Shown here piece by piece: positions 1,168 through 63,809 of a stretch of 64,000 nt of DNA (position 1 is its first letter; every line of letters starts with the position of its first letter). Both the position numbers and the translations under genes were made by a program. The stretch is from Amoebophrya sp. A120 (taxonomy: Eukaryota; Protista; Dinoflagellata). The notes below the pieces were generated by a model that was not told the origin of the DNA, made no database searches, and saw only the letters and a program-made list of their open reading frames with translations. The stretch spans positions 2,954,658-3,018,657 of the forward strand of contig CAJINV010000006.1 in NCBI GenBank assembly GCA_905178155.1. Reading direction: 5' to 3'.

Positions 1168-4100
1168 CGAGCTTGGCGCAGCAGAAGAGTAAGAAGCTGA
1201 AGGAAGCGGAATTGAGAATCGAGAAGGAGAGACGCGAACACACGGCGGAGAAGGAGCAGCTGGTGAAAAAAGTCCGGATTCTGAACACGACAAAAATTCC
1301 GGAAATGACCAAGAAGATCCGGTATGAACTGCAAAAGCATCGTACTAGTACAAATTGCATTACAAATTTTCTCAGCATGACAAATGCAATTTGTAATGCT
1401 GTTTTACCTTAGGAAGAAGATTTGTCATGCATATTTGCAATTAGTACGAGTACGATACTTTTGCACAGGATATCCGGCTACTGGAGAAGAAAAACGCGGT
1501 CTACGTGAAAGAACTATCGCCAGAAAAAACTGTTTCACTGTAAACTTGTAATGCAGAGAATGCATCTCACAAGTGTTTGTCTTGCTACACATGCAAGACA
1601 GTGGATTCTTAGCTGTGTTTTCCCTTAGGAACCTTGCATGGCAAATTTTCTCTGTCATGTAGAGCAAACCTGTGATGCAAAACCTGCAAAATCCTTACAG
1701 TGAAACACTTTTTTCGTACGATAAGAACTGAAGGAAACCGAGAAAAAAAACGCGGACCTGAAAATTTTGGTCCAGACGAGCGGCGTAAGTGCCGTGGGGT
1801 GTGCCGCTGGTGCGAAAAACGATTCGTCCACGACAGCACAGCAAAGAAACACTTCTTCTGCGCAACATCATGACTCTCTGTCCATCTCCCACCACACTCA
1901 CGCGCAAAAACTCCAGCCGCTGGCGCATATCCAAGAAAAAAAGATTGTCCGGTATAAGTTTCTTGGAGGAACAGCATGACAAATCCGTTCTCTGGCATGA
2001 GAGCAAAAACCTGTCATGCGCAGATGGTTGTACGGAAAAACGCCACTGAATGGACCTCCCAATGCATGCCCAGCATGACAGACGCAATCATCTTGCAGGT
2101 TGCGCATCACAAACAATGTTCTTTTTTTCGATAGCGCAGCAAATTCGACTACTGAAACAGACGGAGGAGGACCGGCAAGAGCTGGCGTGGAGTATATCAA
2201 AGAAAAAAAGTTCGTCACGATCACTGATGCGCATTTTTGCATTGCAAAACTTTCGGTCATGCGTAAAAATGCACCACAGCCAGTGCCAGACTTCCTAAGG
2301 GGTTTCCCTAAGTTGTACTGTTTCTGCAATACAAGTAGGAAAAGTTGTCATGCTAAAAAAAATTGTAGATGCAAAGCCAAAGCCAGCAAGTTAGTGATTG
2401 TGACAAACTTTTTTCCCTCCATAGAAAAACCGGGAGCTGCAGTGCCGTATCAACTGTAAAAATGTCTGGGTCTGGAAGATTCTGACACTTGTCATGCACG
2501 TTTTGCATGAGCCATGACGTCTGTGATGCATACCCTAGCAATGCAGATTTTTTGAGGGCTTCTTGATGCCTATTCCGCATGGCAAATGCCTTCTCAGCGT
2601 AGCAAAAATTGCACTCCCTTTGCTACTCATGCAATACAGATTTTTTTGGAATCCAAATGCAGCATCACAAGTTCATTCTTCCAGTAGACCCAGACATTTT
2701 TGCATTTGATATGCCGGGTGTTCGATTTGGAAGAGCAGTTAGAGGTTTACCGGACGTATGCCTTGCAAATACGTCTGGGTCTGGAATAATTGGAATTTGC
2801 GATGCAAATTCTGGAACACACAAAAATTTGTGTTGCCTGAGCGCCACCCGTTGCCCATTTCTTGGTACGCAAGTAGGAACAAGTTGCTTATGCGGGACAC
2901 CAGGCATCAAGTAGAGGCGTGCCCAAAACCTGTGATGCTTTTGCCTGCATGAGACACCATTTGCCTGATCCGAAATATGCATGACAAACAATTGTGCACT
3001 CTTCCAGACCCGGACATGTTTGCAATGGATAGGACGCAGATCCAGTTGCTCATGAAGCAGCAGCAAGGCCAAGGAAATTCAAATTACAATGCTGATTCGG
3101 CTACAGGAAGTACAAGTAGTGCAACAGGTGGAGCTCTTCTTGTGCCACCAGCATCTACAACTTCTGCGAGCGGGAGTGAGGACCGAAAAGAAGCAGCAGC
3201 TCATGTAGTTTCGTCACTACATCAAAGCCAAGCTGCCCATGAAAAAAATGCTGTCCCGTCTACTGCGCCTGCTCTAACTTCTTGTTCTTCATCCCTCAAG
3301 AACGACGTGAGCGAGGAAGGAAGAATGGACCAAGTCGCACCGCCAGGAACAAAAGATGTAGTTGTTTCCCCGCCGGTTGCATCCGCGACCGCTCCAGAAA
3401 TACTAGGAACAGATCATAGTACCACACTTCTATCCCATCTACCGGCGCGTGCGTTGCGAAGCAGTGTTTCCGTGACGGCGGAAAGGAGAGGAACCACAGC
3501 ACACCAGCAGGGGGCACGACCAGGCGCTCCGCCCCCAGCGTCGAAAAATCAAGTGCAGAAAGACTTGTACGGAACAAGTTTTGATAACAGGACTGGTCGT
3601 GGTGCAAGAATGGGGAGTAGTGGTCGCAAGCGCAACTCTTACGTCGGTGAGTACAACTCTAGTAGCCGCTCGAGGTCAGGATCGTCATCACCGGTGAAAA
3701 TAAGTCCGTCGATAGCTAGAACTACAGGTCCTCGGGAGGGGCCGCGGAGAGATCAAGATCCAGCTTCAGAGAAGACAGCTGGTAATATAATAAAAACCGG
3801 AGCTGCTCCTGTGGCGGTGGCCGCAACTAGTAGTACGGCAGAAGCATCGTCACGAGCCCCGCCGACCGGAGCAGCGGGGAAAACCACACCAAAAACATCG
3901 TCCCCCACGAAGCTGTATCAAGTGCAAATATGTCTCCGTCTGGAAGGATGCAACTTGTGATGCTACGGTCCAAAGGTAGCCTACCTTTGGACTCTACATA
4001 TATCAAAATCTGTATTGCATAAACAGTAAAAGAGGTGTAATGTCGTGTGCTACGCAGAGAGGGCATTTCTCATGCGGTATGAGCATGATCAGAAAGCCCT

Positions 4101-7100
4101 CGCAATATCTCTGATGCTAGGGCATGCATCACAGACCTCATGGGTCATGCAAAATCTGCATGACAGACATACTCCTGCATTCTTCCAGATCCATACTTTT
4201 TTGCAATCCATAAGCTGAACCCCAGTCCGGACTTCTGGACGAAGCAGATTCACAAGCTGGCCGCGCGAGGGGGAGATGGTGCACCAAGCTCTTCGTTTGC
4301 CTCTATCAGGGGGACGAAAAACCTCTATTAAAAAGAAAAATCCCCCCTCCCCGCATCGGAAACGAAATTTGTGATGCTGTATTTGAGTACACAAATCGAC
4401 TTGTATTGCTAGAAGGCCAAGAGACGCAGTTGTGGCCTGAATTGCAGGGAATTTGTCATGCTGTTTCCCACTTCCAGTTGCCTCGCGTCGTGCTGGAGAT
4501 GCAACACTTTCCCACGCTAGCTAGCACTACAGTCCGCATCTTTTGCCTTCTAGCATCACAATGCTGATTTGTGACCACAAATCTGCATCACAGACTTCCG
4601 TTTTGATATGGGGAGGGGGGATTTTTGTTCTTGATAACCTCGCGGCGGCGTCGTGGTCTCCAGCCGGGAATAGCAATAGGATCAGAGCTATGCATTGCAA
4701 ATGTCCCTGGATGTCTGGAAGAGTGCAACTTGTGATGCTGCATTTGGATTCTAGAAAAATCTGTGTTCTTGCATGAGCAGCAATGGGTGGAATGTCATTT
4801 TTGCTACGCGGTAGTAGGGGTATTTGTCATGCGGAATAGGCATGATCAAGAAGCCTGGAAAAAATCTGTGATGCTAGGGCATGCAACACAGATCGATCAC
4901 GGCTCATGCAAAACGTGCACGACAAGTCTCAGAATCATCTTCCAGACATCCAGGGATCATATCTGCATTTGATAAGAGCTAGCGGTGCCGGAGATCATGA
5001 CCCCGCGCCGGTGCAGTTCCAAGACGCCCCTGTGGCGAAGCTTAGCACCCTTGGAACAGCAGGGTCATTATCAAGTGGGGCGGCCTCTTTTTCGACATCT
5101 TTGCCGTCGATGAAAAAGGACTATTTACTTGAGGACTTGCTAAACCGCCACTCCGATGTGGACTTTCACCTGACGAAAAGTGCTACTGAGTCCTTGGAAC
5201 TGCATATGACATTGCACAAGAACTACACCCCTGCAGGAGCTTGATTGGATTCGTCATGCGAAGGCGCGATGGACATCCCAGCCGGTGCTACCTTGAGATA
5301 AGTTAGTAGGGCTGCCACGCATGACTATGACAAGCTAGCGCACTCCAAACCGAATTGCATTCCGTGATTGGGTTTGTCATGCAGAAGCTACGTAGTTCTT
5401 TCCACTGCTGTTGTTTTTGTTGCTGTTCATCATGCCAACATACAAATGAGGAGGAGAAGTAGAGGAACTTGTGCATTGTCATACTGCAGGCTTTGCGGAA
5501 GCAGATCGCGACTTTGCGGAAGGAGATAATACCCTACGTGTACACGAACGGAGACGACAAACCAGATGAGGCGCAGGTGGAAATACAAGTAAAAGAACAG
5601 CAGACCGGACGTCGAGAAGAAGTGTTAAAAGAGGCAAAAGCAGCTACATCGCTGCAGCAAGACAGGAACCACGCCCACGTTCAGGAGAGGGACAGCCACT
5701 CATTCTTGTCCAGTAGCACAGAAAAGAGCGATGTTGGCGTTGGCCAGGAGCACGTAGGACCACGCGAAAGAGCTACTGCCACAAGTGCGCCCATGTTCAA
5801 CAAAAATTTGCTCTGTAGCGAGAACCACCTGGACTACCGAAAACAAGGTAATAAAATTACAGATGCATCCGAGGAACGACAATGTGAAGACCTGAGTGCT
5901 GGCCTCTGTGCTGGTATAAGAACATCAACCAGCAGAGGCACTGATGTGAAAACAGACCTGAAAGCGATTGACGACATGCGGAATTTTATCAGGAATTGGA
6001 GCTCGGCGAAGTTTGAAGAGCAGGATAGTAAAAACAACCACGAAAAGATTATGCAGCAAGACGAGCAGGAGATGGAGAACAACGCCACCAGTGACATCAA
6101 CCTCTCGACCACATCTTCAACAAACGCGGTAGAAGTAAAAGCAAGAACATCGTCGTCCACCAAGGCCGTACTAGCAGAGAAAAACTACACTAGCTCCTCA
6201 TCTTCCTGCGAGAGTCCCAAGCAAGTCCCCTGGGCAATTTCTTCCTTCGGCGGAAGATTTTTATGCACTGCAAAAATGTCATCTGGGCTTCTGGAAATTT
6301 GTGTTTCTGTTGATAGTCGCATCCGCGTAGGGTAGCTCCTGCTTGCATGGCATAGCAGCATCAGAAGCTCTGCGAGGCACGAGCTCATTACAGACTCACT
6401 TTCGAAGCGCATGACAAACTGAGTTTTATCTTTTACAGCGTGACAAAAAAACTGGGTAGTCGTATTTTATTATGCATCACAAATCATGATCCTCTTCCTC
6501 GCTGTCCTTCATCATTCGCATCACTACAAATGGATCCCGACCCAGATCTTCGATAATTTGCAATGCATACTTTTTCGGCAGTAGCAACATCACGAAAAAT
6601 ACAAACACTGGCCTGCTCGTCAACAGTAGCGGCTCGGCGAATATCCTGTGCAAAAGTACGTACTAATCGCAGTCATGCAAGACAAATTTCTTTTTCAAGC
6701 TAAATCAGCATGAGAAATTCCATGTGTCATGCCGAGCTTTGCAATACTACGAGTGCGATACTTTTGCAGTTCATAGCGAATTATACAAATTTGCAGGAGG
6801 AGGTAACGTGTGACGACCTGGCACTGACCAACGTTTTAGAAGTAGACGACCAAGTTTTACTTGTGAGCAATAAAGAGCAGCAAGATCATCTTCAACCTGG
6901 TGAACAAAATCATCTACGAAGGACGCTAAAAGCTGCAGATGAGCAGGCCCCCGCTGCTGCACCAGGACGAGGACCAAACCCTGCTTCATCTGCTGGCGCT
7001 GCAGCACGCCCAGGATCTGCTTCTAGAGCAGGCCAACATCAGTCGAGTTGTTCTAGTAGAGCAGGCCGCTTGGACTCCATTTCTGTAAATCAGAGCCTCG

Positions 7101-10100
7101 GAACGATGACCGAAGCGTCTTCGGGGGTTCTGTTTGCCTCCGTGCTCGCAGGAAGCTGCGAAGTAAAATCGGCAACGAGCCGCAGAAGCGAGCAGAGTGC
7201 GATGAGTGGGTGGCAAGGTGGTAGTGCCACTTTTGTTGGCGGTGGAGGAACTGAAGATCATCAAAACGCAAAAATACAACTGCAAAACCCGCCAGCAATT
7301 GCAACACAGAGGAGCACGACCGACAACTACCAGCAGGAACAAGGTTTCACCATCCCGCAGAGCGGTGGTAGTAGTAAGAGAACGGGTGGAGCGTCTTCGG
7401 GCGCCTCGGAAGATAGTAAAGTAGACCACCGGACGAGCTTTCTCACGAGTTACCACTCGCTCTACCTCGACAGCGTGGTTTATGGAAGCGTCAGGATTGA
7501 AATCGTAAAAGTTGAATTAGTTTGTGATGCATAAAATGCAACCCACACAGTGCCTGTCTTGGAGAGTAGGCAAGGGAGGCAGATTTCAAGCCTATTGAGG
7601 GGTAGAAATCGGGCTGCTAAAGTAGCACGACAAAAGGGATCTTCCTTACCCAAATAGCATGACAAACTGGATTTCGGTTCTACCCAAATTTGTCATGCGC
7701 CACTTGGAAACTGGTTTACAACTGGCATCCGTTTTATGCATCACAAATTATTTCAACTTTTAGGATTTCGATCCTGACGCTTCCATATGGTTTTACAGCC
7801 GGCGGGGACCACGAGAAGTAGTCGAGACGACGGCGGGAAGACAGAGAATACACACGGAGGTGGAGCTGCAACGGTTTTCCACAATGAAGACCTTTATTCG
7901 GAGCAGAACAGCACGATGGGACAAGACCTAGCCGCTTCCGGGGGTATGATTCCGGCCGGCCCCCCATCCGTCGTAGAAACCCACGAGTGGTCCTGTCACG
8001 AGGACTCCGATGCGGTATCAACTGCAAATATGTCCAGGTCTGGAAACTTACTTGTGATGCAAGGCAGGGAACATTTCATTAGTGCGCACACTGTATTGCG
8101 CTCCTGTCAAGCATGACAAGTGTTTCCGCGGTTCTGAGTTGCGTACTCCGCATGAGAAACTGCGCTTTCGCATTACAGCCAAGAGGAGCTCATCTTCGCG
8201 GCCACGCAATAGAGAGTTCAGAGCCAACACCCAGACAAGCATGACAACTCTCGGAATTTTCCAGACTCAGACATACTTGCAGCGCATGCGCGGACGAACA
8301 AGGGACCATCAACTCAGGTCGTGCCAGCGATCTTCATATGGAGCGGTTGGTCGGGGCACTGGAGCACGCGACGGGCGGTCCTACTGCTGCTGCAAGTGAT
8401 TTTTCGCCGCGACGAGGGCCCGTTCTTCTAGTAGCGCACGAAGAGAAACAAGAAGAACCTCCTGCCGTGAAGAAACAAGGCGCCCAAGTAGAGATGAACA
8501 ACGATGTTGACGTGGACCACTACGATCATCGCGCGGCCGGGGACAACATCAACGGCGCAACTCCTGAGCGTCTAGAAGTTGTACCCAAGAACGAACCTTC
8601 CTACGCCGAGGAAGTGGAGGAAGAAGTTCGGCTAGACAACATGATGTCACAACCTACACAGCAAGAAAACTGTGTTACAGCTAGTACAGGAGATTCACAG
8701 ATGAAGTTTGGCACCACGGACAAGGACAACTTCGACCACCTCGTCCACTGCGAAGATGACAACGCCAACAACAATATCGAAGATATGGCGTTCTCAACCG
8801 TTACATCCTCAACTGTTACATGGATTTGTGATGCAAGAACGGCAACAGTGAAAGAGGGGACCTTGCGCGTCTTGCATGACAGATTTCGCACGGATTCTCA
8901 GCCTGTTGGGCTCTTCGAGAATTTGTATTGCGAAGCCGCTTGATCATCGTGTCGATTCTGATTGCAATTCTGCATGACAAATCATGTAACAGTTGAAAAT
9001 GTAACATTTGAGAACGCCATAGAAGAGGAAATTTTCCAGTCCCTTGAAGATATGGAAGTGAAAAACAGGTTTGCGACTACCGCGAACCCGGACTACCTAT
9101 CAAGTGCAAAAGTATCTAGGTCTGGAAGAATGCATGGTTGTCATGGAAGTTTGGCATGACTCTTGAATCTGTCATGCACGTTGCCCAAGCGCTCCATTTT
9201 TCTTTCATGCAGAAACGCAGTTTGTCATGCAGAATAGGCAACAACTAGAAGCTCAGAAACTTGTCATGCTGAGCCAGCACTTGTGGCGTCATCATGATAC
9301 GCCACCCAGCATCACAAGTTTCCAGACCCAGTAGACATTTTTGCATTTGATACTATCCGAGCTTTTTCGATTCTGCGGTGGAAACGGAAACGGAGGTATC
9401 AAATGCAAATATGTCTGGGTCTGGAAGATTGTGAGACTTGTCATGCTTGTCTGGCATGACCAAAAAGTTTGTGATGCGTTTCCAAAAAGAGATCCTTTTG
9501 CCTGTCATGCAAAAACGCAGTTTGTCATGCGAAAAACGCAACACAAGGAAGCGCAGATATTTCTCATGCTTGGCGGTGCATTGCAGAGCATTCACTGTTC
9601 CCAACGCAGCATTACGAGTTTCCAGACCCAGTCATTTTTGCAGTTGATAGGAGGTGTGTGATGCGGAGGAAGATGAGCAGCATGGGGATGAAAACCAAGA
9701 TTGTCCACCTCGTGGATCATCCGACGTTGGTAATATCAAAGATTCCACTTCTACTACTTCTGCGACCGAGCAAAGCGAAGAGGTGAGGACTTTTTCCGAC
9801 GCTTTAAGGACCGCATTGGAGAAGGAAGTTGAGAGAAAGTTTGCTGGTGAAAATGACGGAGCGGATTCTGTTTATGCATTGCAAATATGTCTGGGTCTGG
9901 AACGATGCAAACTTGTGATGCGGATGCTGGAACACGCACAAATCTGTATTGCGTAGTCAGCAAAAGGTACCTGATTTTTGTCTCCAGAAAAGGGCATCTG
10001 TCTTCATGCGGAGAAGGCATTGAGAAGCCCCCACAGAGTTTGTCATGCTCTGTGTGCATTCCAGACCTTTTTGTAGATGTGAAAGATGCATCACAAATGT

Positions 10101-13100
10101 CTAACTTCTTCCAGACCCAGACATATTGGCAGTGGATTCTGTTTCTCCCAGTGCAATAAAATCTTCTTCCAGTCCTGGCAAGAAACTAGAACACCATTGT
10201 CATTCCACAGCAGCAGAAATGAACCCCTCGTGTTCCTTGTCAGCGAAGAACCCCTCGCCCCTATCGTGAGGAAAAATCCCCCCTCCCCATATTGAAAAGG
10301 TATGTTTCCAAAAATTTGCGTTGCGGATTCGAGGTCACAAATCACATCTGTATCGCAAGAAGACAAGGGCAGAAGCTTCCGCCCCGTTATGGAAGCGATT
10401 TGTCATGCTGTTGGGCCTAAAGGAGAGCCGTTTGCCGTGCTGAACAACTAGGCCCGTACGCCCCTACCTAGCCTGGGGATCTGGCCGCCATGCCTCCCTG
10501 CAATACAAAGCTGATTTGTGGCCACAAATCAGCATCAGATATGGGGAGGGGGGATTTTTCATTTTGATACCCGCCCCCGAAGAAGCGACCTCTCCCCCCC
10601 TTTTTCACGAACGGAAGGCAAACGGCGAGTTCTTCGTCCTTCGCTGCGAATGGTGATTATGCAAGAAAAAATGTGAATGTAAGTCTGTAATGGAGAAAAT
10701 GCAAAACTGTTGACACTTGTCATGCTGAATCTGCGTCATACTCATAGGCTACTTTCATACGTGTTTCCGCGTGCAACTAGTTGCGCATGACAGGTTTTCC
10801 CTGTAATGCCAAACGAATCTGTGATGCTGCTCTTGCTTCCTACAAAGTTACACTTACACAGTTTTTTTCCTGGATAGTGATCTTGGAAAGAACTACAGAA
10901 GCGGAATTTTTAATCAGAAACATCAGCAAGGAGCTTTGATGTCCCCTTCGCGAGGAACTAGTAGCTCCTCAGCACAACAAGCGTCTTCTACTCTGCACAA
11001 AGCCACTGCAGCGTCCAACTCCCGGGCAACTGCGAACACGGCCACGCTGAAGCAGCAACAGTATCAAATGTAAATATGTAGTCTGGGTCTGGAAACTTGT
11101 GATGCTAAAATCTTGATGATGGAAACAGTTCCGAATGCAACTTAGCATGACAACTTTGCAGAAGGAATGCTTTCTTGTAGGCAATCCGCATCAGAAACTG
11201 TGTGTGCGCATGTACAAAAGAGGCTACGACTGTTGTAGCTTATGCAATACAGATTTTCATCTAGGTATGGAAACTTAGCATTACATCCGGACCCAGACAT
11301 GTTTGCAATGCATAAACAGCAAGCCGCGGGGTCGAGTACTGCTTCTAAAAGTGTTGAAAACAAGAAACTGATTCTCGCTTCCACAAGGATCGTATGAACT
11401 GCAAAAGTATCGTACTAGTAGAAATTGCATTACAAATTCACTTAGCATTACAAATTGAATTTGTAATGCAGATTTGCCTCAGCAAAGAGATTTGTAATGC
11501 ATAAACGCAATTAGTACGAGCACGATACTTTTGCACTGCGTAGATCGTGAAAACGGAAGCAGAAATCGCGGAAATCCGGGCGAAATCGAGGATCCACACG
11601 TTTTATCCTGTGCAAAAGTATCTGATACTCGTATTGCAATCATGCATTACCAATCTTTGTCTTAAGGTAAACCCGCATTACAAATTTTATTTCTCATGCT
11701 GAGAAAATTCGTAATGCAATTTATATATACGAGGACGATACTTTTCCTTTTGCAGTTCATACGTTTCCCGCTCCTGGCACGAATAGTAAGCCCAAGCCAA
11801 ATAAACTGGTACCGCAGCATATCCTCAGTAAAAACATCCTCACCCCAGAGTTGTCATGCAGATTTGCAACGGCAGGAAGATTTGTAATGCGCACCCCAAT
11901 GAGAGGCATTTCAAATCGTGTTTTGGAGGTTCTGATGCTGTAAACAGGATAGGTACATGGGTTTGTGATGCGGCTGCACTTGCTAGACTGCACGAGGAAC
12001 TTGTCGTTGTCATGCGTGACTCCCAAAGCTTCTGGATTTGTGTTGCAAGATCCCGAGCTTTACTCTGGTGTGGGGACGTTTTTACTCGCAATGCAGCAGC
12101 GTATTGACGTCAGGAAAAAGAGTCCCAATGAACAACTGCAGGAGCAAAATATCCTGAGTACAAACGTCCCCGCGCCAGAGTTAAGATGGGAAATCGGCTA
12201 TACAAATCAACAGCAAGCTCTGGCTGTTGCAGCGCATGACAACTGTGGTGGGTGCGCAGTGTAGTCGCATTCACCTAGTGCAGAAGCATCACAGATCTAG
12301 CAGCTCATGCGGATTTGAGCATCACAGATTCCGAAACGCAGTGAGAAAGCGCTCCTTTTGGGACTCCGCATCAGAAACATTTTGAGCGTGCAGATTTGCA
12401 TGACAAGTCTGGGATGGGGACGTTTTTAATACACAGGATACAAAATTTGTGCAAGGGAACGGGTGCGGAGGTAAGTGAATTCCTTTGCGCGGCTGGAGCA
12501 CCTGGGGCGATGCAGGGTACGAGATAGCACAACTCCCCCATCCCCTCATTTGTATGGTATGAGCAGCAATACAGCACCAGCGGAAATGGAGCCTGCCGCG
12601 CATGACAAATCTTCTACACACGGATTGTAGTGCTGTTTGTGTGGTTCCAAAATTTGTCATGCAAACTGCGCTTACAGACAAGATGTGGATTTGGGTTTTT
12701 GCATCACAAATGAGGGGGAGGGGTCGTGGTTGTGCACTTTCATACAGTGGCAGGGGCAAACAGGAGTGGAGGTGGATGACCAAGTGAAAGCGTACATGGA
12801 GATATGTATCAACTGCAAAAATGTCTGGGTCTGGAAGAGTCGGAACCTGTCATGCACATTTTGCATGACGCGTGAGGTCTGTGATGCTGGTGCTCGCATC
12901 ACAGAGTTTTTGAGAGCTTCTTGATGGTAATTACGCATGAGAAATGCCCTCTCCGCGTGCCAGGAGCTGACTCGTCTTGCTGCTCATGCAACACAGATAT
13001 TTTTAGAATCCGCAGACAGCATTACAAGTTCCACTGTTCCAGACCCAGACATTTTTGCAATCCATAATATGAGAGAGAACACGACAGCTCCCCCTCCCCC

Positions 13101-37658: not shown

Positions 37659-37666
<8 letters not shown>

Positions 37667-40150: not shown

Positions 40151-40870
40151 TGAAGTGTAAACGATGCGTATCCCCGCTGGTGTTCTTTGTCTGTTGTATT
40201 AATTTGTTGGGCCTGGAAGCAATATTGGGCGGCAGTGTGTGGAGTGGTCCGGGCAGCCTGTGCACCTTATCGCCGCGCGAGGATGCTGCGTTCAGATCCT
40301 GTTCTTTTTCTGTCTTAGTTTTGCTGCGGGCGCGGGCGGCGCGCATGCAGAGCCAGCCAGCGGCGCAGGGATAATACGCACAGGGGAATAGAAGTAAAGT
40401 GGATAAATAGCCGCCATCGGCGGGGCAGCTAGGGTGAAGAGGAAGTGATGGAAAGTCAGTGGGCACGCTCTGTTGTCTGCGAAGCTTAGTCCCAGTCTAA
40501 ATCCATAGCCCCAAGCCCTACTGCCTGTTCTTTTTATACTTTTGGTTGCTCACCAAGCTAGCCACAGTCTGCGGCGTGTCTTAGCGTGCCCCGGAGCGTA
40601 ATTTTTTAGCGAATCCTGCACACCCAGCAAAACTGCCGAAAGACATAGATAGGCGCCAGGGAGGATGGTTTCCGTAAAATCCGCTTCCGGGGTGCCGCCG
40701 GGCTGCAGAAGTTCCCTTCATTCCAGGGGCCGCGCGGTGTTTCGCTTTAGAGGCCAGACCCGCAGCCGGCCTCCAGGCTTTTCGACAGCCACGGCGGATC
40801 CGAAAGAAAATAGGAGCTAGCAAGTGCAAAAAGTGTTACTTCTAGAGGCTGCGCCCTTTTTCGGTTCAGA

Positions 40871-51000: not shown

Positions 51001-54000
51001 CTCTAAAAAAGTTTAAGCCTACAATTTTTTGTTTGGCATTGATTTTTTTTTTTAGACCACGAGCATGAGAACAAGTTGATAAGTAATTTCGAATACAACC
51101 ACTCCAGGCGAGCGCGTGAAATCTGAGATGGAATACGGACTGGGGCATTTGTATGAAGTGCAAATATAATGTCTGGGTCTGGAAGGATGCCGGGTTCTTT
51201 GTCATGCACGTTTTGCATGACCCATGGCGCCTGTGATGCATTGCCTAGCATCACAGATTTTTCGAGGGCTTCCTGATGCCTATTCCGCATGAGAAATGTC
51301 CTCTCAGCGTAGCTGCATAAACTACTGGGCTCCTCTTGCTGGTCATGCAATACAGATTTTTTTTATAATCCAAGGACAGCATCACAGATCCAGGGGTATT
51401 TGCAATGCATAATTTGAAAAAACACGAGTTCCACTACGACACCGATGCCGCGGGACAGCGGCACGAGGAGTTTGGCCTGGGCCACCACATCCACTTTGTC
51501 GACAACTACGCTGTCATATGAGAGTGCACAACCCCACCCCCTCCTCCTCATTTATGTGGCATGATGAACAGCAACACAAGCGCTGGCAAAGTAGATAAAT
51601 GCAGCAGCTTTTGCATGACAAATTCCGAGAGGACTGCAGTGCAGCTGTTTTGGGTCATTCCGGAGTCTGTCATGCAATCAGTGCTAGCAGGCAAATGGTA
51701 GATTTGGAATTTTGCATGACAAATGAGGGGAAGGGGGGGGTTGTGCACTCTCATATGTCACGCACGACAAGTCCGCGGCGGGCGTTGCAACCGAGCGGCT
51801 AATATCCTGTGCAAAAGTATCGTACTCGTATTGCAATCCTGCATTACAAATTTTTTTCTGAAGCTAAATCCGCATTACAAACTTTATTTCTCATGCTGAG
51901 GAAATTTGTAATGCATTTATACGAGTGCGATACTTGTGCAATGCATAGCTAAGCGAGAAGCTGATTCAGTTTGGGTCGGCCCACCACCAAGACAATATGG
52001 ATTGCAAAAATGTCTGGGTCTGGAAGAATGCGCGATTTGTCATGCAGCTTTTCCATGACGCAAGAGGTCTGGAATGCAGGACCTAGCATGACAGACTCTG
52101 TGCGATATCTCTCATGCCTATCCTGCATGAGAAACTCCCTCCCGACTTGGTCAAAACTGGACGACTTTTGGTAATCACGCAACACAGATTCTTGCATGCT
52201 TCAGATTTAGCATGACAAGTTGCATTCTTCCAGACCCAGACGTTTTTACATTTGATAGACAAAAATTGCACGCAAAAATTGCGGGTGCACAGCCCACTCA
52301 GACACTCGCACTTTCAAGGTATAATGTTAATCGAGAATGATTTTGTTTTTGTTTTTGTACTAGCGACGATGATCATTTGATGCTATCAGCTGAAACAACA
52401 GAGGCTGATCAGGAACGTTGCAGATGCTGAGCAGGGATAACGTCGGTGTCTGTTTTCATTCACGACGGCTGCACACAGCATGCGTATCAATCGTAAAAAT
52501 TGACTCGCGACTTCTTGTAGGCCACAAAAAAAACCGGAAAGATTTCTTCTATGCAATCCAGATGTAAGTACTTTGTGTTTGTCGCATCTTGTATCCAATC
52601 AATCTGCTCGCATCTTCACCAACACAGATGAGAATATCATGGCACATAATCTTAAATCTGCAATGCAAAAAACACTACTAGGCTCCGACGTCGTGCACCG
52701 GGTGGAAATTAGCCCAGGAGAATACCGGGTCGAGGATCGTTATGGAAGCGTCAGGTTTGAAATCGACAAAGTTGAAATGATTTGCCATGCATAAAATGGA
52801 TGCCAGTTGTAACCCAGTTTTCAAGTGGCGCATGACAAATTTGGGTAGAGCCGAAATCCAGTTTGTCATGCTGTTCCGGCAAAGAAGACTGCTCCTGTCA
52901 TGCTATTTCAGCAGCTCAGTTGCTACCACTCAACAGACTTACAATCTGCCTCACTTGCCTACTCTGCAAGACAGGCACTTTGTGGGCTGCATTTTTTGCA
53001 TGGCAAATCATTTCAACTTTGACGATTTCAATCCTGACACATCCATAATCGGCAGAAATTCGGACTTTCGCGGCGGCATTACGATCAGGAGTACAAAGAC
53101 GCTTTTACCACAACGCTATCAAATGCAAATAAAAATATGCCTGGGTATGGAAAAACCGTGTGATCTGATGCCAAAATGTGGATGATGGAAAGAACACTTA
53201 TTCCGGATGCAGCCCAGCATCACAACTTTCCAGAACTACGCTTTCATCTCATTGGCAGGCCGCATGAGAAACTGCGTTTTAATATTTGCAGGACAAAAAA
53301 ATGGCTGCAACTCCAACTTTATTTGTTGGTCATGCAATACAGATTTCACAGGAATGTAAGGCCAGCATTACAACTTCCAATTTTCCAAACCCAGACATAT
53401 TATTTGCATTTGATACGAGCCGAAGGGCGACGGGGGATTTCAGCCCGGGCACAAGCAGAGACGGCATATTTCCCCCTTGAGAACGGACGGATTGAATTAT
53501 CAACGTGAAAAACACCCCCACCCCACATGAAAAAGGAAATTTGTGTTGCTGGATTTCTGTACACAAATCAGCTTTGTATTGTGGCAAGGGCGTGAAGGCA
53601 TTTTTCAAGCCTGGTTGGGTATGCAAAAGGCTAGCAGCTAGGCATTACAGACAGGTTTGCAGTAGGTAAAAGCGCATGACAGATTTGCTGTCGGATGCGA
53701 GATATGGCTCCCAATTGCCTCATGTGCAAGACAAAGCTGATTTGTGGTCACAAATCAGCATCACATTTTGAGTACGGGGAGGGGGGATTTTTCCTCGCGA
53801 TATGAATGGGGAAATGTTTTCTGCAGATGGCCGATCCAATCAGATCGTGTATGCACTGCAAAAGCATCGTAGTACTAGTATGAATTGCATTACAAATTTT
53901 CACAGCATGAGAAATGGAATTTGTAATGCTGATTGACCTGAGGAGAAAGATTTGTAATGCATAGCGTGCAATTAATATTACGAGTACGATGCTTTTGCAA

Positions 54001-54795
54001 AGCATATCGTGTATGTGGGGACAAATTACAGTAATCAAGTGCAACGAAGCCAACCGAACCAAGTAGTACCGCCAACATCTTCTTCAGCAGCCGCCGCCGC
54101 GGGCTACTCGAAGTTTTTGCCACCATATGAAGTGTGCACAACTCCACCCCCTCATTCTCATTTCTCGTGCAAAATCCCGAATCCAAGCGCTTCCCTTGTA
54201 TCACTTTTATGCATGACAGATTCCGGAAGCCCAGCCAGGACTACACTAGAACTGCATGAATTTTTTGTCATGCACAGGCTCCACGTGTGCTGGTGTTTGT
54301 ATTGCTGTGCCTGCAATACAAATGAGAGGGAGGGGGAGTTGTGCACTCTCATACACCACGGCAGATTGTGTCCGAAGTAACGCGGGGAAATAACTTCGGG
54401 GTGGGAAATATGGATGTGTCAGGATCGAAATCGACAAAATCGGAAAATTTGTGATGCGTAAAATGTAGAGCAGCACTGAAGGCCTTTATTCGGGAGCAGG
54501 CAAATGAGACCAATTATGAGCCTGTTTAGGGGTATGCAATGTGCTGCCAGAGTAGCAAGACAGGAGGAGTCTTCTTTGCCCAAACAGCATAACAGCCTGG
54601 ATTTGGGTTCTCCCGAAATTTGTCATGCGCCACTCGGAAACTGATGCTCCAACTGACATCGATTTTGTGCATCACAAATTTTTCGATTTTGTCAATTTCG
54701 ATTCTGACACTCCCATAGGAAACAACACAGGGGCAATGGACCTGCCACCCACGGTTTTCGAGGGCCACGGATCAGTCCTGCGGGGGCAAAAGTAG
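45028..54795 (+). CDS. Hypothetical protein, 26 introners plus 2 canonical GT-AG introns
   Basis: ATG 45028 (MYDRISQMDLEQQQ) to TAG 54793-54795 (HGSVLRGQK*). Introners: 45140-45415, 45477-45731, 45791-45990, 46185-46430, 46500-46649, 46733-47022, 47108-47256, 47343-47558, 47631-47898, 48167-48323, 48375-48656, 48836-49097, 49163-49481, 49571-49839, 49923-50201, 50273-50613, 51152-51411, 51517-51755, 51803-51947, 51996-52257, 52741-53047, 53117-53415, 53498-53802, 53850-54006, 54126-54353, 54409-54717. Inferred GT-AG introns 50832-51107 and 52319-52681 keep the frame. Confidence 0.8.
45791..45990. mobile_element. Introner family G (TATCCAGGAAAAAAACTG), ~200-220 bp
   Basis: TSD ACCAG. Other copies start at 1928, 10658, 47343. 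Confidence 0.9.
51517..51755. mobile_element. Introner family F (TATGAGAGTGCACAAC), ~230 bp
   Basis: TSD TGTCA. Other copies start at 5205, 12518, 12803, 42706, 54126. Confidence 0.92.
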
Positions 54796-55688
54796 TTTTA
54801 TTGTGTGGCTCCTAGATTCCCATTCATTGGATAGTATTATGGCATTTTAGCTTTCTCATCTACATATTTTATTTTTTGTGAGGTGAAGCATAAGATAGCC
54901 TGTAGCTGTACCTGTTTCTTCATTACAAGTAGTTGCACGACGGTGGTGCTGTGACAGCAGGCTCTCCCAGCAGCTGCTCATTGCAACATAACATTCCCCA
55001 GGCCTGAACCCTCGTTTTTTTTTGTTTCTCACCAGTTGGCTCGGCTTTTTTTTCGAATTTTTTACATGATTCAGTACGACGAGAGTGCGACTTGTTGTCT
55101 ACACTAGTATTTTTTCTCTCTTCTTGTTTTTTTTCCATATCCATTCCCATTTGTCTGCGCACGCAGCTTCAGTACTATCATCCCCTCCGTATGTAGTAAT
55201 TTGCGATTCATTTCTTTCCATGTCGATGTAAGCTATTCCTATTTCAGAGGGGCCCCAGGTTGGAACAAACAACAGTCACGCACTTCAAAAACACGAGCCA
55301 GCTTGGAAACCAAAACAATGCGTGACCGGCGAAAATTGATGCTCACCCTCCTGAGCGAGACTCGTGTTGAGCGACCCATGACGGCACGATGACATCCTCA
55401 ACGAAGGAGCCGTAGTACTAGTACCCCGAAAGTAGTAGCACGTGCTGCATCAAAATAGTACACGACGGGGACAAGCCTGCAATGTTAAACTTTTGAAAGA
55501 CATTCGAACGAAAACCGTTTCAGCCGCTGCTCGCGGACGAAGTTGGCTAGCTGCAGGGTTTGGCACAAGCCTACTCAGTCGTGTTTCCGAGTACGAAAAT
55601 AGCAGAGCAGGAGTTGCTGCTGCATCCGGTCGTGTGCTGGTCGTTTTAACGAATCAAGTAAATGACCTATTGTCCTGTACGTAAGTTC

Positions 55689-56895: not shown

Positions 56896-57163
56896 GAAGT
56901 TCTTTCGAGCGGCTTTTTTGTTGCGAGGACAGAGAAAATATTTTCAACATCGTGAGAACCAGAACTACAGAAAGCAAGGCGAGTCAGTTGTAATGTAAGG
57001 ACTGCTAATATCCAGATCAAAAACAAAATCAAAATAGCAAAGTTCAATGCAAGGTGGCCGCTAGTCTTGTGCCGGACTAAACAAGCATACAAGAAGAACA
57101 GAAAAAAAATAAAACTATGCACCCGGAGCAGCTTCTACACCATCCGCTCTCAAAGTCCAAATC

Positions 57164-60100
57164 ATGAATCCGCTCTCAAAGTCCAAAAGCTTTGATCACA
57201 AGCAGGACATAGCTCACCGGGAAGCCAGCACGCTGAAAGAGCGACAGGATGCGGCTAGCGCGGCGAGTTTGTTGATATCGTGAGAAAAAGCCCTCTCAGT
57301 CTCAAACCTTTTTGCTTTGCAAATTCAGCAATAAGTACAAATTGAAATTTGCTCAGCATCTTGACACGGAAATAAACCCGTGATGCGTCGAATACAAGGG
57401 AAATAAACACCTATAGCTGCAGACGATTAGGATTATCTCGCATGCCGAGCATGACATAAAACTGTCTCAAGGAAGTTGCTCATCACAAGTTGAGACTGAG
57501 ACAGTTTTTTCTCAGGATAGTTGACTAAGAAAAATTACCAATACGGAGGTTCCTCCGCTTCGACCTCGAAAAATCCGCATTTGATATTCTGAGTAAAAAC
57601 GTCCCCACCCCAGAGTTGTCGTGCAATCCTGCATGCCAAAAACGTTTCTCATGCGGAGCCCTAGCAGAAGCATTTCCTATTCCTGTTTTGAACTTTGTGA
57701 TGCTAGAATCAGCATGATATGCTAGATCTGTGATGCTTCTGAGCTAGCTAATCAGGATTACACTACGAGGACAACCTTGTCATGCCAAACAACCAAAGCT
57801 GTGTGATTTGTCTAGCAGATTTCCCATCTTGACTCTGGTGTGAGGACGTTTCTAATCAGGATATTTGAACAGACAAAACTACGGTAATGATGCAGCGTCT
57901 TCGAACACGCAGCCCAGCCGCCTGTACCCGACAACTTCTGCGCAAGATGATCATATCCCTAGGACCACGAGGACCGGAACATCATCAACCCCAAGAGCTG
58001 CACAACAAGATCAGTGGCGGCACCCCGACGCGCCCGCCCCGCACCCGCAGCGGAGTTTGAAGCGGTGTTTGTTACTGTATGAACAAGCCGTGAACCTGCA
58101 GCGAAGAAGAACGCAGCTGTCGGCGCGGACCTTGCACGAACAGCAGGGCAGCAATCCTTACCACGAGCAGAACTTTTCGTCTGCTTACCTGGATGATCAT
58201 ATGAACTGCAAATGTGTACTCTGGAGCTGGAATAAACTTGTGATGCTATTTTGTAAATGGTGGGCGCACTGCGTTATGCAGCCACGCATGACAAGTTTGT
58301 GAGGTCCTGTGTGTTTCGCTTCGCGTTCGCGCATGACAAACTTCATTTTTACATACGGGTGCCTTCCTGCTCATGTAATACAGATAGAAGAGTCATGTGA
58401 GACAAGCATGACAAGCTTGCATTCACTTCCAGAACCAGACATATTTGCAGTTGATAGATCAAGACGTCGCGCGGGGCCGCAGCAGAACGGCCGCTAGCCG
58501 CATGTTTACACCAGAGTCACTATGGATTGTAAAAATGTCTGGGTCTGGAAGATTGCCAGGTTTGTCATGCATATTTTGCATGACCCATAAGGCCTGTAAT
58601 GCAAGAGCTAGCATCACAGACTTTTTGAGGGCTTCCTGATGCCTCTCCCGCATGACAAATGCCCTCCCAGCGTAGCACAATCTGGACTCCTCTTGCTGGT
58701 CATGCAATGCAGATTTTTTTAGAATCGAAAGACAGCATGACAGGTTGCGATCTTCCAGACCCAGACATTTTTACATTTGATAGTCACGAGTTAGGAACAA
58801 CATTTTCCCACGCGCCATTTCGACGAGCACCATCATCACTGGCCACAGCCGGTCCGTTATCGCAGAGGAAAATTGGCCCTCCCCATAGATATCATCAAAA
58901 TGGAAATCTGTGATGCGGGATTTGTGTTGTACACAAATCCAAATCGATTCTGTTTTGCAGTAGAGGACTGCACGCAGATCCTATGCCTAGGTGAGGGCAT
59001 TTTGGTGTAGACGCCTAGCATGGTAGACGGCTAGTTTCCTGTAGGCCTACATAGCGTTACAAAACGCCACCATAAAAACGAGGCGGACAGCCTGAATTCT
59101 GTGCCTTCTTGCAAGACACTCACAAATCTGCATCTTCACAAATGTGCTTGTAATATGGGGACGAGGGGGGGATGTTTCCTTGCAATATCCGTGCCGCAGA
59201 CACCCACCACCAACCGATCTTCGAGCAACGTGTGGCGGAGTCTGGATGAAGACCACTTTTCTATCCTGTGCAAAAGTATCGTACTCGTACGTAGTAATTG
59301 CAAATGCGATCATGCGTTGCAAGTCTTTTTCTGAAGGTAAATCTGGACTACGAATTTTATTTCCCATGCTGAGGAAATTTGTAGTGCATTTATACGAGTG
59401 CGATACTTTTGCAGTTCATATTTTCCACCCCGAAGCAACTTCGCGGACGGGGACTGACCTACGGGGAACAGCTACAAGGCGGGCTCCGCTCCCGGTCACA
59501 GCCGCCCGACCATAGTGCAACTACCGGCGCGGACCACCCGCCGGACGAAGTTGTCAACACCGGGGCTGACGACGCACAAGCCGCCGGGGAAGATCCGAAT
59601 TTCACTGATGATCCACAAAGTACGAACAGAACCCTATCAGAAGGAAAAATCTTCCCTCCCCATATGGAAAAGGCACGCCTCAGAAAATTTGCAATGCTGA
59701 TTTGTGACCACAAATCGTGTCTGTCTTGCAAGAAAGCAACGCCACAGGTTCCGCCCCATTATGCAGATGGTTTGTGATGCTCATGCGCCTACAGTATAGA
59801 CGTTTCTCATGCTGATTGCCTAGGCCAAAACCTCGCTACTCTGGCATGATGTGCGCCTTGCAGTCCTCTACTGCAATAGAAATCTGATTTGTGCGCAGAT
59901 TCAGCATCAGAGCTATCGTTTTGATGTGGAGAGGGAGGACGTTTCCTTCTGATAAACCCTCCAGAGATCCTTCTCGGCCCGCCCCGCGAACACCGAGCCG
60001 CCGTCGAGTGGGGGCGGGGGGGCCACGACGAGCAACTTCTATAACCGGTCCGTCTCCGCGAGCCGGCGGTATCCTGTGCAAATAAAGTATCGTACTCGTA

Positions 60101-63100
60101 TAAATGCAAGTCTTGCATTACAAGTCTTTTTCTTAAAGCAAATCCGCATGACAAATTTTATTTCTGATGCTGAGGAAATTTGTAATGCTAATGCATGTAT
60201 ACGATTACGAGTGCGATACTTTTGCAGTTCATAGACGGGCGAGGACGCCGACCTTTCCCAACGGCTACGCGCAGGTGGTAGACAGGCTGATATCAGCAAG
60301 AAAAATCCTCCCTCTCCATATCAAAACGGAAACCTGTGATGCAGATTTGTGATCACAAATCAGCCTTGTCATGCTACAAGGGAAAAGATGCGGACTGTAG
60401 TGCTAGGTGGCTTGGGAAATAAGCCTCGCATCTTCAGCATGACAGGAGGCAGCTGGAAGTGGGGAATAGCGTGACAAATTGCCTGCACACGAGGCCACAA
60501 CTGCGGCCCTTGGCCTTCTAGCAATGCAGGTCGATTTGTGTACTCAAATATATAGCGGCGGCAAAAGCTTATTTTTTGGAAAATTAAAAAAAGCATTGGG
60601 TGTCATAGATACTGGCCGCGAAGAGCACCACCATCGCCACGTGTGTCGAGCATGCTCGGCTGCGGCGCCTGTGCAGCCTCGGTTGGAATTAATCGGAGGA
60701 AAAGAAGGTCGGGCGCCTGGTTGACATAAATAATAGGTCCGGGGGGCTGGGCCTTACGAACTGCACTGCACTCGCGGGCCCGCGCTCTGGCTCGATGCCC
60801 CGCCGAGACCTGCGCCGATAGTAGTGGAGCCGCCGGCAACCGGGCCCTCGTGGCATGCTTGCCAGTGGCCTAGCGTATGTGTTTTGGCAGCGCGCCGGGC
60901 AGCAGGATGGGCCGGGGAGATGTGGCGAGGAGAAGCATTTCCCTGCCAGGTTTGTGAAAAGGCCTCGCGTAATGGCCGCGAGAAAATAACAACGCGCCCC
61001 GGGCTGCTAGGGGTGTGCGCTTTCCGCCTCCCGCAGCCCTTTCCGAAGCGTCGCCCGGCGGCTCTTGCTGCTTTTCTACCAGCTCTGGTGGTTGGCCCTT
61101 CGAGGGGCGATCGCTGGCGCGCCGGGGTTTCAGAGGGGCCGCGAAAGGGTCACCGGACTGGCAGGAGAACATGAAAAAAGCCCCGGAAACATGCGGCGGC
61201 CAAAAGCCGCGCCCGTTTTGAAACCTGGGAGTCAGAGCGCCTGCCGCCGGAGTACCACAACCAAACTCCGGGCTGGAGGGGCGGAAACTCTTGGTCGCTG
61301 CGGCTGTGTCACTCCCACCCCGGCCCCTGGAGGGGGCGTGGCAAGCAATTGGCCCGACCGAATGCCCGCCGCCCGGCACACCCCCAAAGCGCGGGGCTTT
61401 TGCCTCTTTTGGGGGGGCATGAAACGGCACCAAGCGGACTGCCTCTCCTGCGTGCGTTATGCTCCGCAAGGGCAGTGGGGGTTCGCAGAGTAAGCCAGGC
61501 CAGAAGGGCTTCATTGACCGCCAAAAGCGCCGCAAGCCCTGTCCCTTTCCTTTTTGCCGCGCCATAATCGGATCGGGACAAAGCACGTGGCCGAACCCTA
61601 CCCGCTCGACCAGTCCTACCGACTGCGCCAGGTCGGGCACCTTCAAAGGGGGCCAAGGACAGGGCGACGAAGATGCGCACCCACGGCCAAGGAAGGGGGC
61701 GCGCGCCCGCGAAGAAACGGCCGCCCACCCCTTCTGTGTGTTATCTCCGAGGCATGTCCCTAGCCCGCCCATCCGCGGAAACCCGGGGAAGCGGCAGGGC
61801 CCCGGCCGTGCCAAACGGACGAAAACCTCCCCCCCACCCGAGCATGCGCCGGCGGCGAGAGGAGGGGGAGCAACCTGAGCCGAACTTGTTGGGCCCTCTC
61901 TTCCGACAACCCGGAAACTGGTCGTCTCGAATGGGCAAAGGTTTCGTGGAACGGCGCGTGCCGAGCAGCCCGGGCCCAAGTGACACGCTTGTCGCTACGA
62001 CGGAGCTTCGGGTGGGAGGCTTCCCAACGGAAATGCGGGCCGGGCAACCGGAAACACCTTCCGGGGGAGGCTAAAGAGGCACCCCCCCAAAGTGGGTCCG
62101 TAGCATGCGGGGTCGCTCTTGCTTAGGGCCACTTTTGGAGACCCTATCCGGGCACCCCCGGCCGCGGGGCCCGGGGGGAGGCCGGAAGTGGAAAGCCAGC
62201 GGCGGCAAGGGCGGTCAAGCAGCACGCGGCCGACTTGCACCCCGGAGCGGCCGCGGGGCTGCGCAGCTGCCCGGAAGCGTGGCGCCGATTGCCTCGGCAA
62301 ACAAGAGCGCCGGCGATCCTGGCGCCCCACACGCGCTGGCTTCTGGTTTTGGCGCCATGCGTCCCTCGGTCTGGCCGAAGAAAAACAGCGACAACTAGCA
62401 CGGCCCACAGAATGCAGGTAGTGTTTTCCCCGGCAAATTGGTCCGCGTCCGCCCTGCATTGCCAGCTGGCCGGCTTCGCAATGTTGGCAGGGCGGCGCGC
62501 CGAAAGAGTAGGGCGTCCGTGAGGGTCCTGATGTTTTTGGCATCCTCTAAAAGGGCCCCGGGCGCCGCGCACCTCTGCGCCCTACCTCCGGCGCAAGCGC
62601 TGTGGGCCTCGGATCGGGCCAGGAAAACAGTGGGGCGGCGGAGCCAGGCCCAATCCTTTCCGCCGTACATTTTTCCGGAAATCGGCCAAAGGCACGGCGG
62701 TCGGCCGAGGGGGCTTTTCAGGTTGCCGCCCGCCCTGGTTGGGGCCACTAGAGCACGGCGCGCCGCGGTCGGGCCCCCCTTGCGCGGGCCGTCTGATCAG
62801 TTCCCCACCTGCAAAAAGGGGGGCCCGGCTGCCCCGCTGTGTTGCCCCGGGCTGTGGCGCTTGTACTCTAGCCTCCAAGCGTGCTGGCAGTGTCGCCGGG
62901 CGGCTGTTTTCCGCGAAATTTGTATACGAAATGCCGTCGGGTAGTTCTTGTAAGGAATCCCGCGACTTGGCGGAAGCTCGCTAGGGGGTGGCTTGGGAGG
63001 TGTAACCAAACCGCAGGCGCCTTGGTTGGGATGGAGCCACGCTTCCGCCCGCTTTGCAGAAATGGGGCTACTCGAAAAGGGCGAGCGCCGCGCGGTTGAG

Positions 63101-63809
63101 GAATTTATTGCGGTCGGCCGAGCGGGAGTCGTGGGCGGCGGCCGAGGGGTGTTGCGGCACCTCGCCGGGCAATCAGGGATGGGCATTGCGGCCGATGATG
63201 CCGCCTGAACGGGGCGCAGGAGCATGGCCCCTGGGCATCTGGTGCGGCGCAAGGCGCTCGCCCATTCCATATCACGCCGTGCCTTTGGCTTGGGCAGATT
63301 CGGCCGTGCCTGCCGGGCCTCCGCCTGCCCCGACCAAATTCGGAGCGGCGCAGACCTGGCGGGATTGGCCCGTCTAGGGGTCAACGACGGGCCCGGCCCC
63401 CTGCCCAGGATGCCCGCTCTGGCGTGCGCGGACGTTAAAGCTGACGCAACCTCTCGCGCCTTCTGCTAGGGGTTCTCTCTGCGGTGGTGTGATGTGTTTG
63501 ACTTTGCGGCAGCACGGCAGAGCAAACTGGGTAAGCGCTGCGCCGGCGTGGCTCTTACGCCGTCCTGAGTCCAGAAGCGTGATGATTCTGATGGGCTGCG
63601 GGGCCCACGATAAAGCCACCCAGTATTTTTTTTAATTTTCGCAAAAATAAGCTTCTGCCGCCGCTATACACAAATTTCGTTTTCGATATGGGGAGGCGGG
63701 GGGGTTTTTCCTCTTGATAGTTGAAGTATGGCGTGTCCTACCGGCAGTCCTACAATCATCCGAACCCGGTGATTCGGTCCCTGGACGGGTTGGGCGGGCA
63801 GTCGGTCGA
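57164..63809 (+). CDS. Hypothetical low-complexity protein, continues beyond window; 10 introners in window
   Basis: ATG 57164 (MNPLSKSKSFDHKQ). Frame is restored across 57276-57519, 57585-57863, 58200-58456, 58521-58782, 58858-59187, 59262-59420, 59635-59954, 60070-60233 and 60291-63719 (…VVDR|LKYGVSYRQSYNHP…). The next introner starts at 63810. Confidence 0.78.
57276..57519. mobile_element. Introner family K (TATC.TGAGAAAAA....TCTCAGTCTCAA)
   Basis: TIR present, TSD GTTGA, and removal restores the frame of the 57164 gene. Confidence 0.85.
60551..63668 (+). mobile_element. 3.1-kb TIR element with TAT..ATA ends carrying a decayed integrase, inserted in a family-D introner
   Basis: ~50-bp TIR: TATAGCGGCGGCAAAAGCTTATTTTTTGGAAAATTAAAAAAAGCATTGGGTG versus the reverse complement of the right end TATAGCGGCGGCAGAAGCTTATTTTTGCGAAAATTAAAAAAAATACTGGGTG. 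Interrupts introner 60291-63719. No clear TSD. Confidence 0.85.
61250..62510 (+). pseudogene. Decayed retroviral-type integrase (HHCC + DDE remnants)
   Basis: Motifs occur in the correct order across frameshifts/introns: EYHNQT..AGGAETL (61250-61292), LFWGGMK..DCLSCVR (61404-61457), KPGQKGFID (D ~61516), FLFAA / STWPNPTRSTSPTDCA, GGFPTEMRAGQ (62015-62047, second D position mutated), VVFSPANWSAS..RAERV (E ~62502). Identified by eye only. Confidence 0.6.

Follow-up and report, generated by a model that had tools for sequence, protein, structure and literature searches.

How does a cell clear its transcripts of introns that appear to obey no splice-site rule? The question is raised by a stretch of 64,000 nucleotides, here called the window, from the dinoflagellate Amoebophrya sp. 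A120 (contig CAJINV010000006.1, positions 2,954,658 to 3,018,657). Four genes in the window, g1 to g4, are interrupted by introners: elements with terminal inverted repeats (TIRs) that begin with TAT, end with ATA and are flanked by a 5-bp direct repeat. An initial annotation, made from the letters alone, counted about 90 such interruptions and held that each must be removed with exactly one repeat copy, that no fixed splice dinucleotides exist and that the means of removal cannot be read from the sequence. At seven telling junctions, however, the intron is exon/N-TAT...ATA-NNNN/exon, cut between repeat bases 4 and 5, and by extension this register would hold for all copies. What makes the cut? 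The introners are likely removed by the host U2-type spliceosome, with the hairpin of the element as a ruler that replaces U1 and AG recognition, a reading given a probability of about 0.6.

TAT..ATA inverted pairs were scanned without using the flanking repeat for selection and were then curated by hand. At a TIR score of at least 12 the window holds 81 pairs, and each of three shuffles holds none; a perfect 5-bp repeat flanks 67 of the 103 selected pairs, the repeat not being a selection criterion. The curated set consists of 86 coding elements in the four plus-strand genes (27 in g1, 24 in g2, 26 in g3 and 9 in g4), and with a nested element at 12807, a decayed one at 50832 and two cut by the window edges the total is indeed about 90. 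Repeats are perfect at 67 of the 86 and mismatched at 19. TAT opens 84 of the 86 elements, and A is found at TIR positions 11-13 in 73-78 of them. Each of the 86, if retained, breaks the frame, and removal of the element length plus 5 leaves it open every time. Removal of length plus 8 does so equally, so that the frame by itself fixes the removed length only modulo 3; the length is settled at element plus 5 because the RNA joints show it. The claim of removal with one repeat copy thus stands, on the transcripts and not on the frame.

The transcript-like runs X1-X4 are contigs whose RNA status is an automated guess, and X6 is a DNA-like run. Positions 14400-33400 were compared with X1, X4 and X6, and positions 47905-53495 with X1-X3 (one sample); X4 does not cover g3. 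The joints listed are 15 of 1,097 for the first stretch and 15 of 16 for the second. Among these, all 25 single joints at intact elements skip exactly element plus 5 (12 in the first stretch, 13 in the second), with no shift to GT-AG sites. Thirteen of the 24 elements of g2 are seen removed among the joints listed in X1 and X4, and all 13 g3 elements within 47905-53495 appear as plus-5 joints in X1-X3. A double joint, 18577-27460 (X1, X4), removes both 18578-18853 and the 8.6-kb element 18880-27459 and keeps the 16 exon letters between them. In all, the joints listed show removal for 26 coding elements of the 86 and for one element that is untranslated. The elements are therefore removed from RNA with ends other than GT-AG.

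Where in the repeat does the cut fall? Let register n denote a cut after repeat base n. A perfect 5-bp repeat lets the cut slide over six places; a junction is informative where the two copies differ, so that the transcript base tells which copy survived. Seven junctions are of this kind:

17804 to 18061, plus strand: element 17809; mismatch at base 5, 3' copy kept (cut at or before base 4); joint 17803-18057, both=4.
28173 to 28461, plus strand: element 28178; mismatch at base 4, 5' copy kept (cut after base 4 or later); joint 28176-28461, both=2.
32965 to 33296, plus strand: element 32970, which starts TGT and lies in a 3' untranslated region and a T-run context; mismatch at base 4, 5' copy kept; joint 32968-33296, both=1.
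48162 to 48328, plus strand: element 48167; mismatch at base 5, 3' copy kept; joint 48161-48324, both=4.
48831 to 49102, plus strand: element 48836; mismatch at base 3, 5' copy kept; joint 48833-49101, both=2.
52736 to 53052, plus strand: element 52741; mismatch at base 5, 3' copy kept; joint 52735-53048, both=4.
53112 to 53420, plus strand: element 53117; bases 1-3 differ, 5' copy kept, and removal is still exactly plus 5; joint 53114-53419, both=2.

Thus three base-5 mismatches resolve to the 3' copy, and two base-4 and two base-3 mismatches to the 5' copy, a pattern with a chance of 0.016 under a uniform register. Register 4 alone fits all 27 listed single joints; register 3 fits 25, register 5 fits 24 and register 0 fits 21. 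Register 0 (an intron ending at ATA) and register 5 (an intron starting at TAT) are contradicted by four and three intact-element junctions, respectively. Second-hand support comes from public proteins, which agree with register 4 at five further non-synonymous mismatches, two of them requiring a register of at least 4; the independence of these protein models from the transcript runs is not established. Is the register tied to the orientation of the element? Elements 48836 and 53117, opposite-orientation members of one family, both require a register of at least 3, which contradicts such a tie and shows that cut polarity follows transcription.

Once the cut is placed, what remains fixed? A sample beyond the window was provided by a scan of metagenome contigs, which gave 128 loci (L001-L128; 392 kb) with the same element families and 326 distinct elements. 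The 5-bp repeat is perfect in 245 of 325, with none at 6-8 bp, so that the invasion is also present in an environmental population. Strand analysis kept 153 of the 326, and 173 with no strand call or a repeat match below 4/5 were dropped; strand calling was correct on all 11 called window tiles and left 12 of 23 tiles uncalled. At register 4 the second intron base is T in all 86 window elements and all 153 metagenome elements. Base +1 is free (G 26, C 25, A 20, T 15), as are the last two bases (AG in 8 of 86), and the first exon base is A in 20, C in 25, G in 27 and T in 14. The statement that no fixed splice dinucleotides exist is thus right for +1 and the last two bases and fails at +2. GT..AG ends arise in 2 of 86 window elements, as chance predicts, and in 4 of 153 metagenome elements. 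A repeat that ends in AGG gives GT..AG at register 4 (9397, 28528 and the decayed 50832 intron). Sliding the cut uncovers no hidden GT-AG rule, as no register from -2 to 7 yields more than 6 of 86 pairs with GT, GC or GA at the start and AG at the end.

At each of their five positions the repeats match coding background in composition (chi-square p 0.42-0.96), which bears out the description of the duplications as arbitrary; neither target-site preference nor palindromy was found at the repeats of window elements or metagenome loci. Two further introns with GT-AG ends lie among the elements of g3:

50832 to 51107, plus strand: GT-AG intron from a decayed element; joint 50828-51105; 74% identity over 188 nt to element 1928-2133 (BLAST E 2e-26).
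52319 to 52681, plus strand: GT-AG intron with no element similarity; joint 52316-52680; no BLAST match and no internal motif.

In the first of these the inverted ends have decayed and the GT stands in the same 5' register as in intact elements. It is weak evidence on the register, because the family alignment suggests an original 3' end about 45 nt upstream of the current AG.

The elements are also predicted to fold end to end. The predicted stem stops at the repeats, with one unpaired base before it and four after, and in 81 of 83 elements at least 30% of the first 20 nt pair with the last 25. Mean predicted in-register pairing is 0.66-0.85 at TIR positions 1-3 and 8-20, and in 20 sampled introns the terminal hairpin is strong (mean z -6.5). 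At TIR positions 4-7 the left and right ends often differ, and predicted pairing falls to 0.40-0.57; counted along the intron they are +5 to +8, close to the place at which the donor would be read by U6. Among the 239 stranded elements of window and metagenome, 5'-end mutations number 0 for the first TIR base and 6 for the third, and 3'-end mutations 5 and 2, respectively (Fisher p 0.02, post hoc). This asymmetry weakly hints at a constraint on T+2 and A-7.

How might a spliceosome use such introns? In conventional splicing U1 recognizes the donor, which is later read by U6. An insertion would be a non-autonomous DNA-transposon copy, its inverted ends being TAT..ATA and its target duplication 5 bp long, made by a putative integrase-like (Ginger-type) transposase, and it would leave the transcript together with one repeat copy. 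The GU donor would take its U from the first T of the element, at +2; the branch point may be the leading A of the terminal ATA, at -7, with the 3' cut set by distance from it. In its fullest and distinctly tentative form, the proposal is that a U1-less spliceosome reads only U+2, dispenses with G+1 and the 3' AG, branches at that A and places its cut a set distance away, the hairpin being the ruler, and that any 5-bp-duplicating insertion of any size or orientation is removed without a scar. Whatever the target sequence, such a cut puts back one full repeat; the protein is therefore predicted to be left unchanged by every insertion, and this silence would account for the spread of the elements. 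In Table S4 of the A120 genome paper, the predominant motifs, nine for A120 and nine for A25, all have T second, to which aligner placement may contribute; the A25 inverted ends differ from those of A120 (Farhat 2021, PMC7789003). According to the part of the same paper on the splicing machinery, A120 possesses 83 spliceosomal proteins out of 89 along with U2, U4, U5 and U6, and U1 was not detected. An Amoebophrya relative with canonical introns has U1.

Several points weigh against removal by the spliceosome. Step 2 of splicing normally needs a pairing of the first and last intron bases, and no bias in that pairing is seen (chi-square p 0.13, n=86 in the window; p 0.59, n=153 in the metagenome loci); nor is G at +1 or a terminal AG enriched beyond chance in either set. 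The T at +2 may be a coincidence, because the TIR forces a T there once the register is set. The hairpin, as modelled, would bury bases that U6 would need to read, and element 11393 ends in GTA and so has no A at the proposed branch position. The public protein model P0008 reads into the last g1 element, 12803-13309, with no removal. The informative RNA junctions are seven, from two samples of one study, in contigs that show the major form only and whose RNA status is guessed, and with all window genes on the plus strand the register is seen on that strand only.

Could the same 1+4 register be the work of non-spliceosomal proteins, a dedicated hairpin-measuring endonuclease and a ligase, of the kind put forward for Euglena? 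This is unlikely on balance, and it is nevertheless the strongest competitor. Such an enzyme would leave +1, -1, -2 and their pairing unconstrained, as observed, and would make use of the strong terminal hairpin. In Euglena the rule is a stem with spacers of fixed length about it, and the authors of that work favour non-spliceosomal proteins in their discussion of mechanism (PMC12501133); that U1 was not detected in A120 fits as well. Yet an enzyme that measures a hairpin does not explain why T is at +2 in A120 and A25 alike although their inverted ends differ, nor why the decayed element 50832 now keeps that 5' register as a GT-AG intron. On the 3' side, mutations in the first stem pairs do not prevent removal, as in element 48375, which ends ATT and is removed exactly according to its transcript joint, and the Euglena signature is absent.

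It is considerably less probable that there is no single register, i.e. that cuts fall at varied places in the repeat and that the agreement reflects chance or major isoforms only. The genome paper, in its passages on introns, does call splice sites variable relative to the hairpin (PMC7789003), and the 2025 introner table gives mixed assignments for the A120 families in the rows considered (PMC12130899). The junctions number seven, moreover, and if registers 4 and 5 were both in use, the three base-5 results would still come out this way with a chance of one in eight. All 7 RNA cases and all 5 annotation cases nonetheless fit one register. Sliding of the aligner in a perfect 5-bp repeat would itself produce the published variability, and in large A120 families the share of GT donors, 26-30%, is what chance gives for a G at repeat base 5.

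Excision of the elements from DNA in some life stage, with one repeat left behind, is very improbable, because the cut polarity follows transcription in both orientations, which a symmetric DNA process would not give, and the DNA-like run X6 keeps the elements. X6 has depth 0 at all 13 listed transcript joints of 14400-33400, in contigs only and with an incomplete joint count, and its single-copy contigs run from exon into element; intron-retaining RNA contigs are present at low depth. In favour of excision, the elements are transposon-shaped, and rare DNA variants are invisible in assembled contigs. On this part of the mechanism, then, the evidence is more informative than first supposed. Two joints seen only in X6, 18056-29233 and 29494-32972, each link one repeat copy to another and were discarded as artefacts of repeats. 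A raw-read run, X9, placed 4 of 3.3 million reads on the window. In the first 60 BLAST rows, the metagenome loci showed neither an orthologous nor an empty site of a window gene.

Is the class new? It is already known for this genome, as public A120 proteins match window genes and the elements are described in A120 by Farhat 2021 (PMC7789003); the link to Amoebophrya introners made at the outset is therefore confirmed. In that paper more than 60% of A120 introns are non-canonical, with 1,954 families. The window elements share with them the grouping into many families, inverted repeats of 8-20+ nt that start with TAT and carry an A run, direct repeats of 3-5 nt (5 bp in the legend of Fig. S19), a hairpin and RNA-supported non-canonical junctions. 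Its passages on these introns report no clear splice signature and mark the border position as unknown or variable, and a 2024 review repeats the high variability. The window junctions, in contrast, resolve to one register with an invariant T+2 by way of mismatched repeats. Gozashti 2025 (PMC12130899) likewise gives A120 families a TIR DNA-transposon origin, and family 38, listed as Ginger with a 5-bp target site duplication (TSD) and TA/TA termini, shares these with the window elements; in the 22 of 58 A120 rows considered, automated TSDs are 2-5, there are three classes of splice-site recruitment and no common register is given. Literature searches found no paper giving this register for A120 introners.

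Comparable systems differ in telling ways. The nonconventional introns of Euglena (PMC12501133) also lack GT-AG and have inverted ends like the ones in miniature inverted-repeat transposable elements, fixed stem-to-cut spacers and a terminal stem (predicted here). Their code, in the part of the paper that sets it out, is N3-CDG...CH'G-N5-6 followed by a purine, whereas in A120 it is N1-TAT...ATA-N4 with T at +2 and no purine preference. Non-canonical introns of Fritillaria borealis (PMC13326754, PMC11282704) are likewise transposon-derived and mostly non-GT-AG, and are handled by a modified U2 spliceosome. As described in the relevant sections, Fritillaria keeps U1 and has mostly AG-AC or AG-AT ends, with about half G-G-like terminal pairs; in A120, U1 is undetected and terminal pairs are unbiased. 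The closest parallel in register is class 12 of the Polarella glacialis introners, NNAGG (bioRxiv 10.1101/2020.10.14.339549), with a 5-nt duplication and a donor made of the last duplicated base and the first base of the element, i.e. a 4+1 register. From what is given for that class, it needs G and AG from the target, and A120 accepts any target.

The fixed register is an addition to a published class, modest but useful. The rule N-TAT...ATA-NNNN replaces the absence of a rule and names the nucleotides to be sought in lariats or circles, so that the mechanism becomes directly testable, and about 30,000 A120 introners can be re-annotated in one register. If the spliceosome performs the removal, A120 would offer a natural example of splicing that needs neither G+1 nor AG nor U1. 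It would bear on how far the terminal-pair requirement of the catalytic core can relax and on how transposons turn into harmless introns.

The genes and their elements (TIR start to end) are as follows.

1168 to 13330, plus strand: g1, 3' part, a low-complexity protein; 27 elements; frame open after removal.
g1 elements: 1323-1472, 1515-1723, 1928-2133, 2195-2423, 2448-2711, 2757-3031, 3916-4212, 4326-4636, 4689-4974, 5205-5483, 6262-6569, 6642-6775, 7481-7787, 8016-8288, 8784-9021, 9098-9352, 9397-9649, 9873-10138, 10262-10569, 10658-10876, 11062-11314, 11393-11542, 11604-11761, 11820-12093, 12150-12440, 12518-12744, 12803-13309.
14545 to 31330, plus strand: g2, 704 aa; 24 elements; spliced product equal to P0001.
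g2 elements: 14687-14842, 14921-15183, 15235-15520, 15600-16015, 16071-16371, 16445-16723, 16981-17246, 17284-17430, 17484-17745, 17809-18056, 18178-18501, 18578-18853, 18880-27459, 27492-27752, 27889-28043, 28178-28456, 28528-28838, 28901-29162, 29233-29494, 29530-29693, 29907-30153, 30248-30518, 30564-30885, 30920-31134.
45028 to 54796, plus strand: g3, 842 aa; 26 elements; frame open after removal.
g3 elements: 45140-45415, 45477-45731, 45791-45990, 46185-46430, 46500-46649, 46733-47022, 47108-47256, 47343-47558, 47631-47898, 48167-48323, 48375-48656, 48836-49097, 49163-49481, 49571-49839, 49923-50201, 50273-50613, 51152-51411, 51517-51755, 51803-51947, 51996-52257, 52741-53047, 53117-53415, 53498-53802, 53850-54006, 54126-54353, 54409-54717.
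57113 to 63809, plus strand: g4, which runs off the window; 9 elements; a 402-codon open frame after removal.
g4 elements: 57276-57519, 57585-57863, 58200-58456, 58521-58782, 58858-59187, 59262-59420, 59635-59954, 60070-60233, 60291-63719; a tenth begins at 63810.

Spliced g2 equals the public protein P0001 at 704 of 704 residues, and spliced g1 is identical to P0008 over 1694 residues and differs only at its last element. The window exons are 100% identical to both proteins, which their source names as Amoebophrya sp. A120; a Pfam search of the two gave no match.

Some elements carry other insertions:

12807 to 13066, plus strand: element inside the first bases (donor end) of the older outer element 12803-13309, a stwintron-like arrangement judged from sequence.
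18915 to 27344, minus strand: nested insertion of 8.4 kb with TG..CA inverted repeats and a 4-bp duplication, inside element 18880-27459; ends approximate to a few bases.

Removal of 12803-13309, a putative intron among the 86, would, from the predicted reading frame, give a short normal C-terminus. The insertion at 18915-27344 has integrase zinc-finger and core matches below the Pfam cut-offs (E 5e-5 and 4e-3), and a homolog search for its integrase region found none. It differs in ends and duplication from the introners, and the window holds no autonomous TAT-ended copy with an integrase-like transposase. It lies antisense to g2; such passengers could pass for long intron-generating families in intron-clustering surveys. 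A 3.1-kb GC-rich insertion at 60550-63670, inside element 60291-63719, has inverted ends of about 50 bp that start TATAG; a Pfam search of five open reading frames at 60.5-63.6 kb gave no match.

At 110-1168 the last bases of an introner hold an insertion of 1,043 bp, which has TTA..TAA inverted ends and a duplication of 8 bp. This insertion has left the full inverted end 1 kb upstream, with only a 7-base remnant adjoining the exon, and the public P0008 joins into the exon after this remnant. The locus is a natural test of the need for a whole hairpin. An element of 1,016 bp occupies 31925-32940, beginning 6 bases past element 31639-31918; its inverted ends, TGT../..ATA, are long, it has no 5-bp repeat and it is flanked by a duplication of about 29 bp. 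Its cut in X1 and X4 seems to fall 4 (or 5) bases beyond the ATA, judging from a 24-letter exon that starts at 32945, which would agree with register 4, and stepwise splicing may be needed.

BLAST clustering of 98 elements gave 20 groups at the loosest threshold (10 with at least two members) and 25-31 at stricter ones, in keeping with the at least 11 families first counted. The large families occur in both orientations about equally (18:17, 9:8, 5:5, 5:3 and 3:3). Nine more TAT..ATA elements lie at 34791-43470 between g2 and g3, outside the gene models, and 5 of their 9 repeats are mismatched. Common to the families is an internal motif of 8-10 bases (GCATGACAAA-like), present in both orientations about four times per element; the elements (21.5 kb) contain 359 matches and the coding sequence (11.4 kb) 8. 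The motif is possibly a transposase or splicing-factor site.

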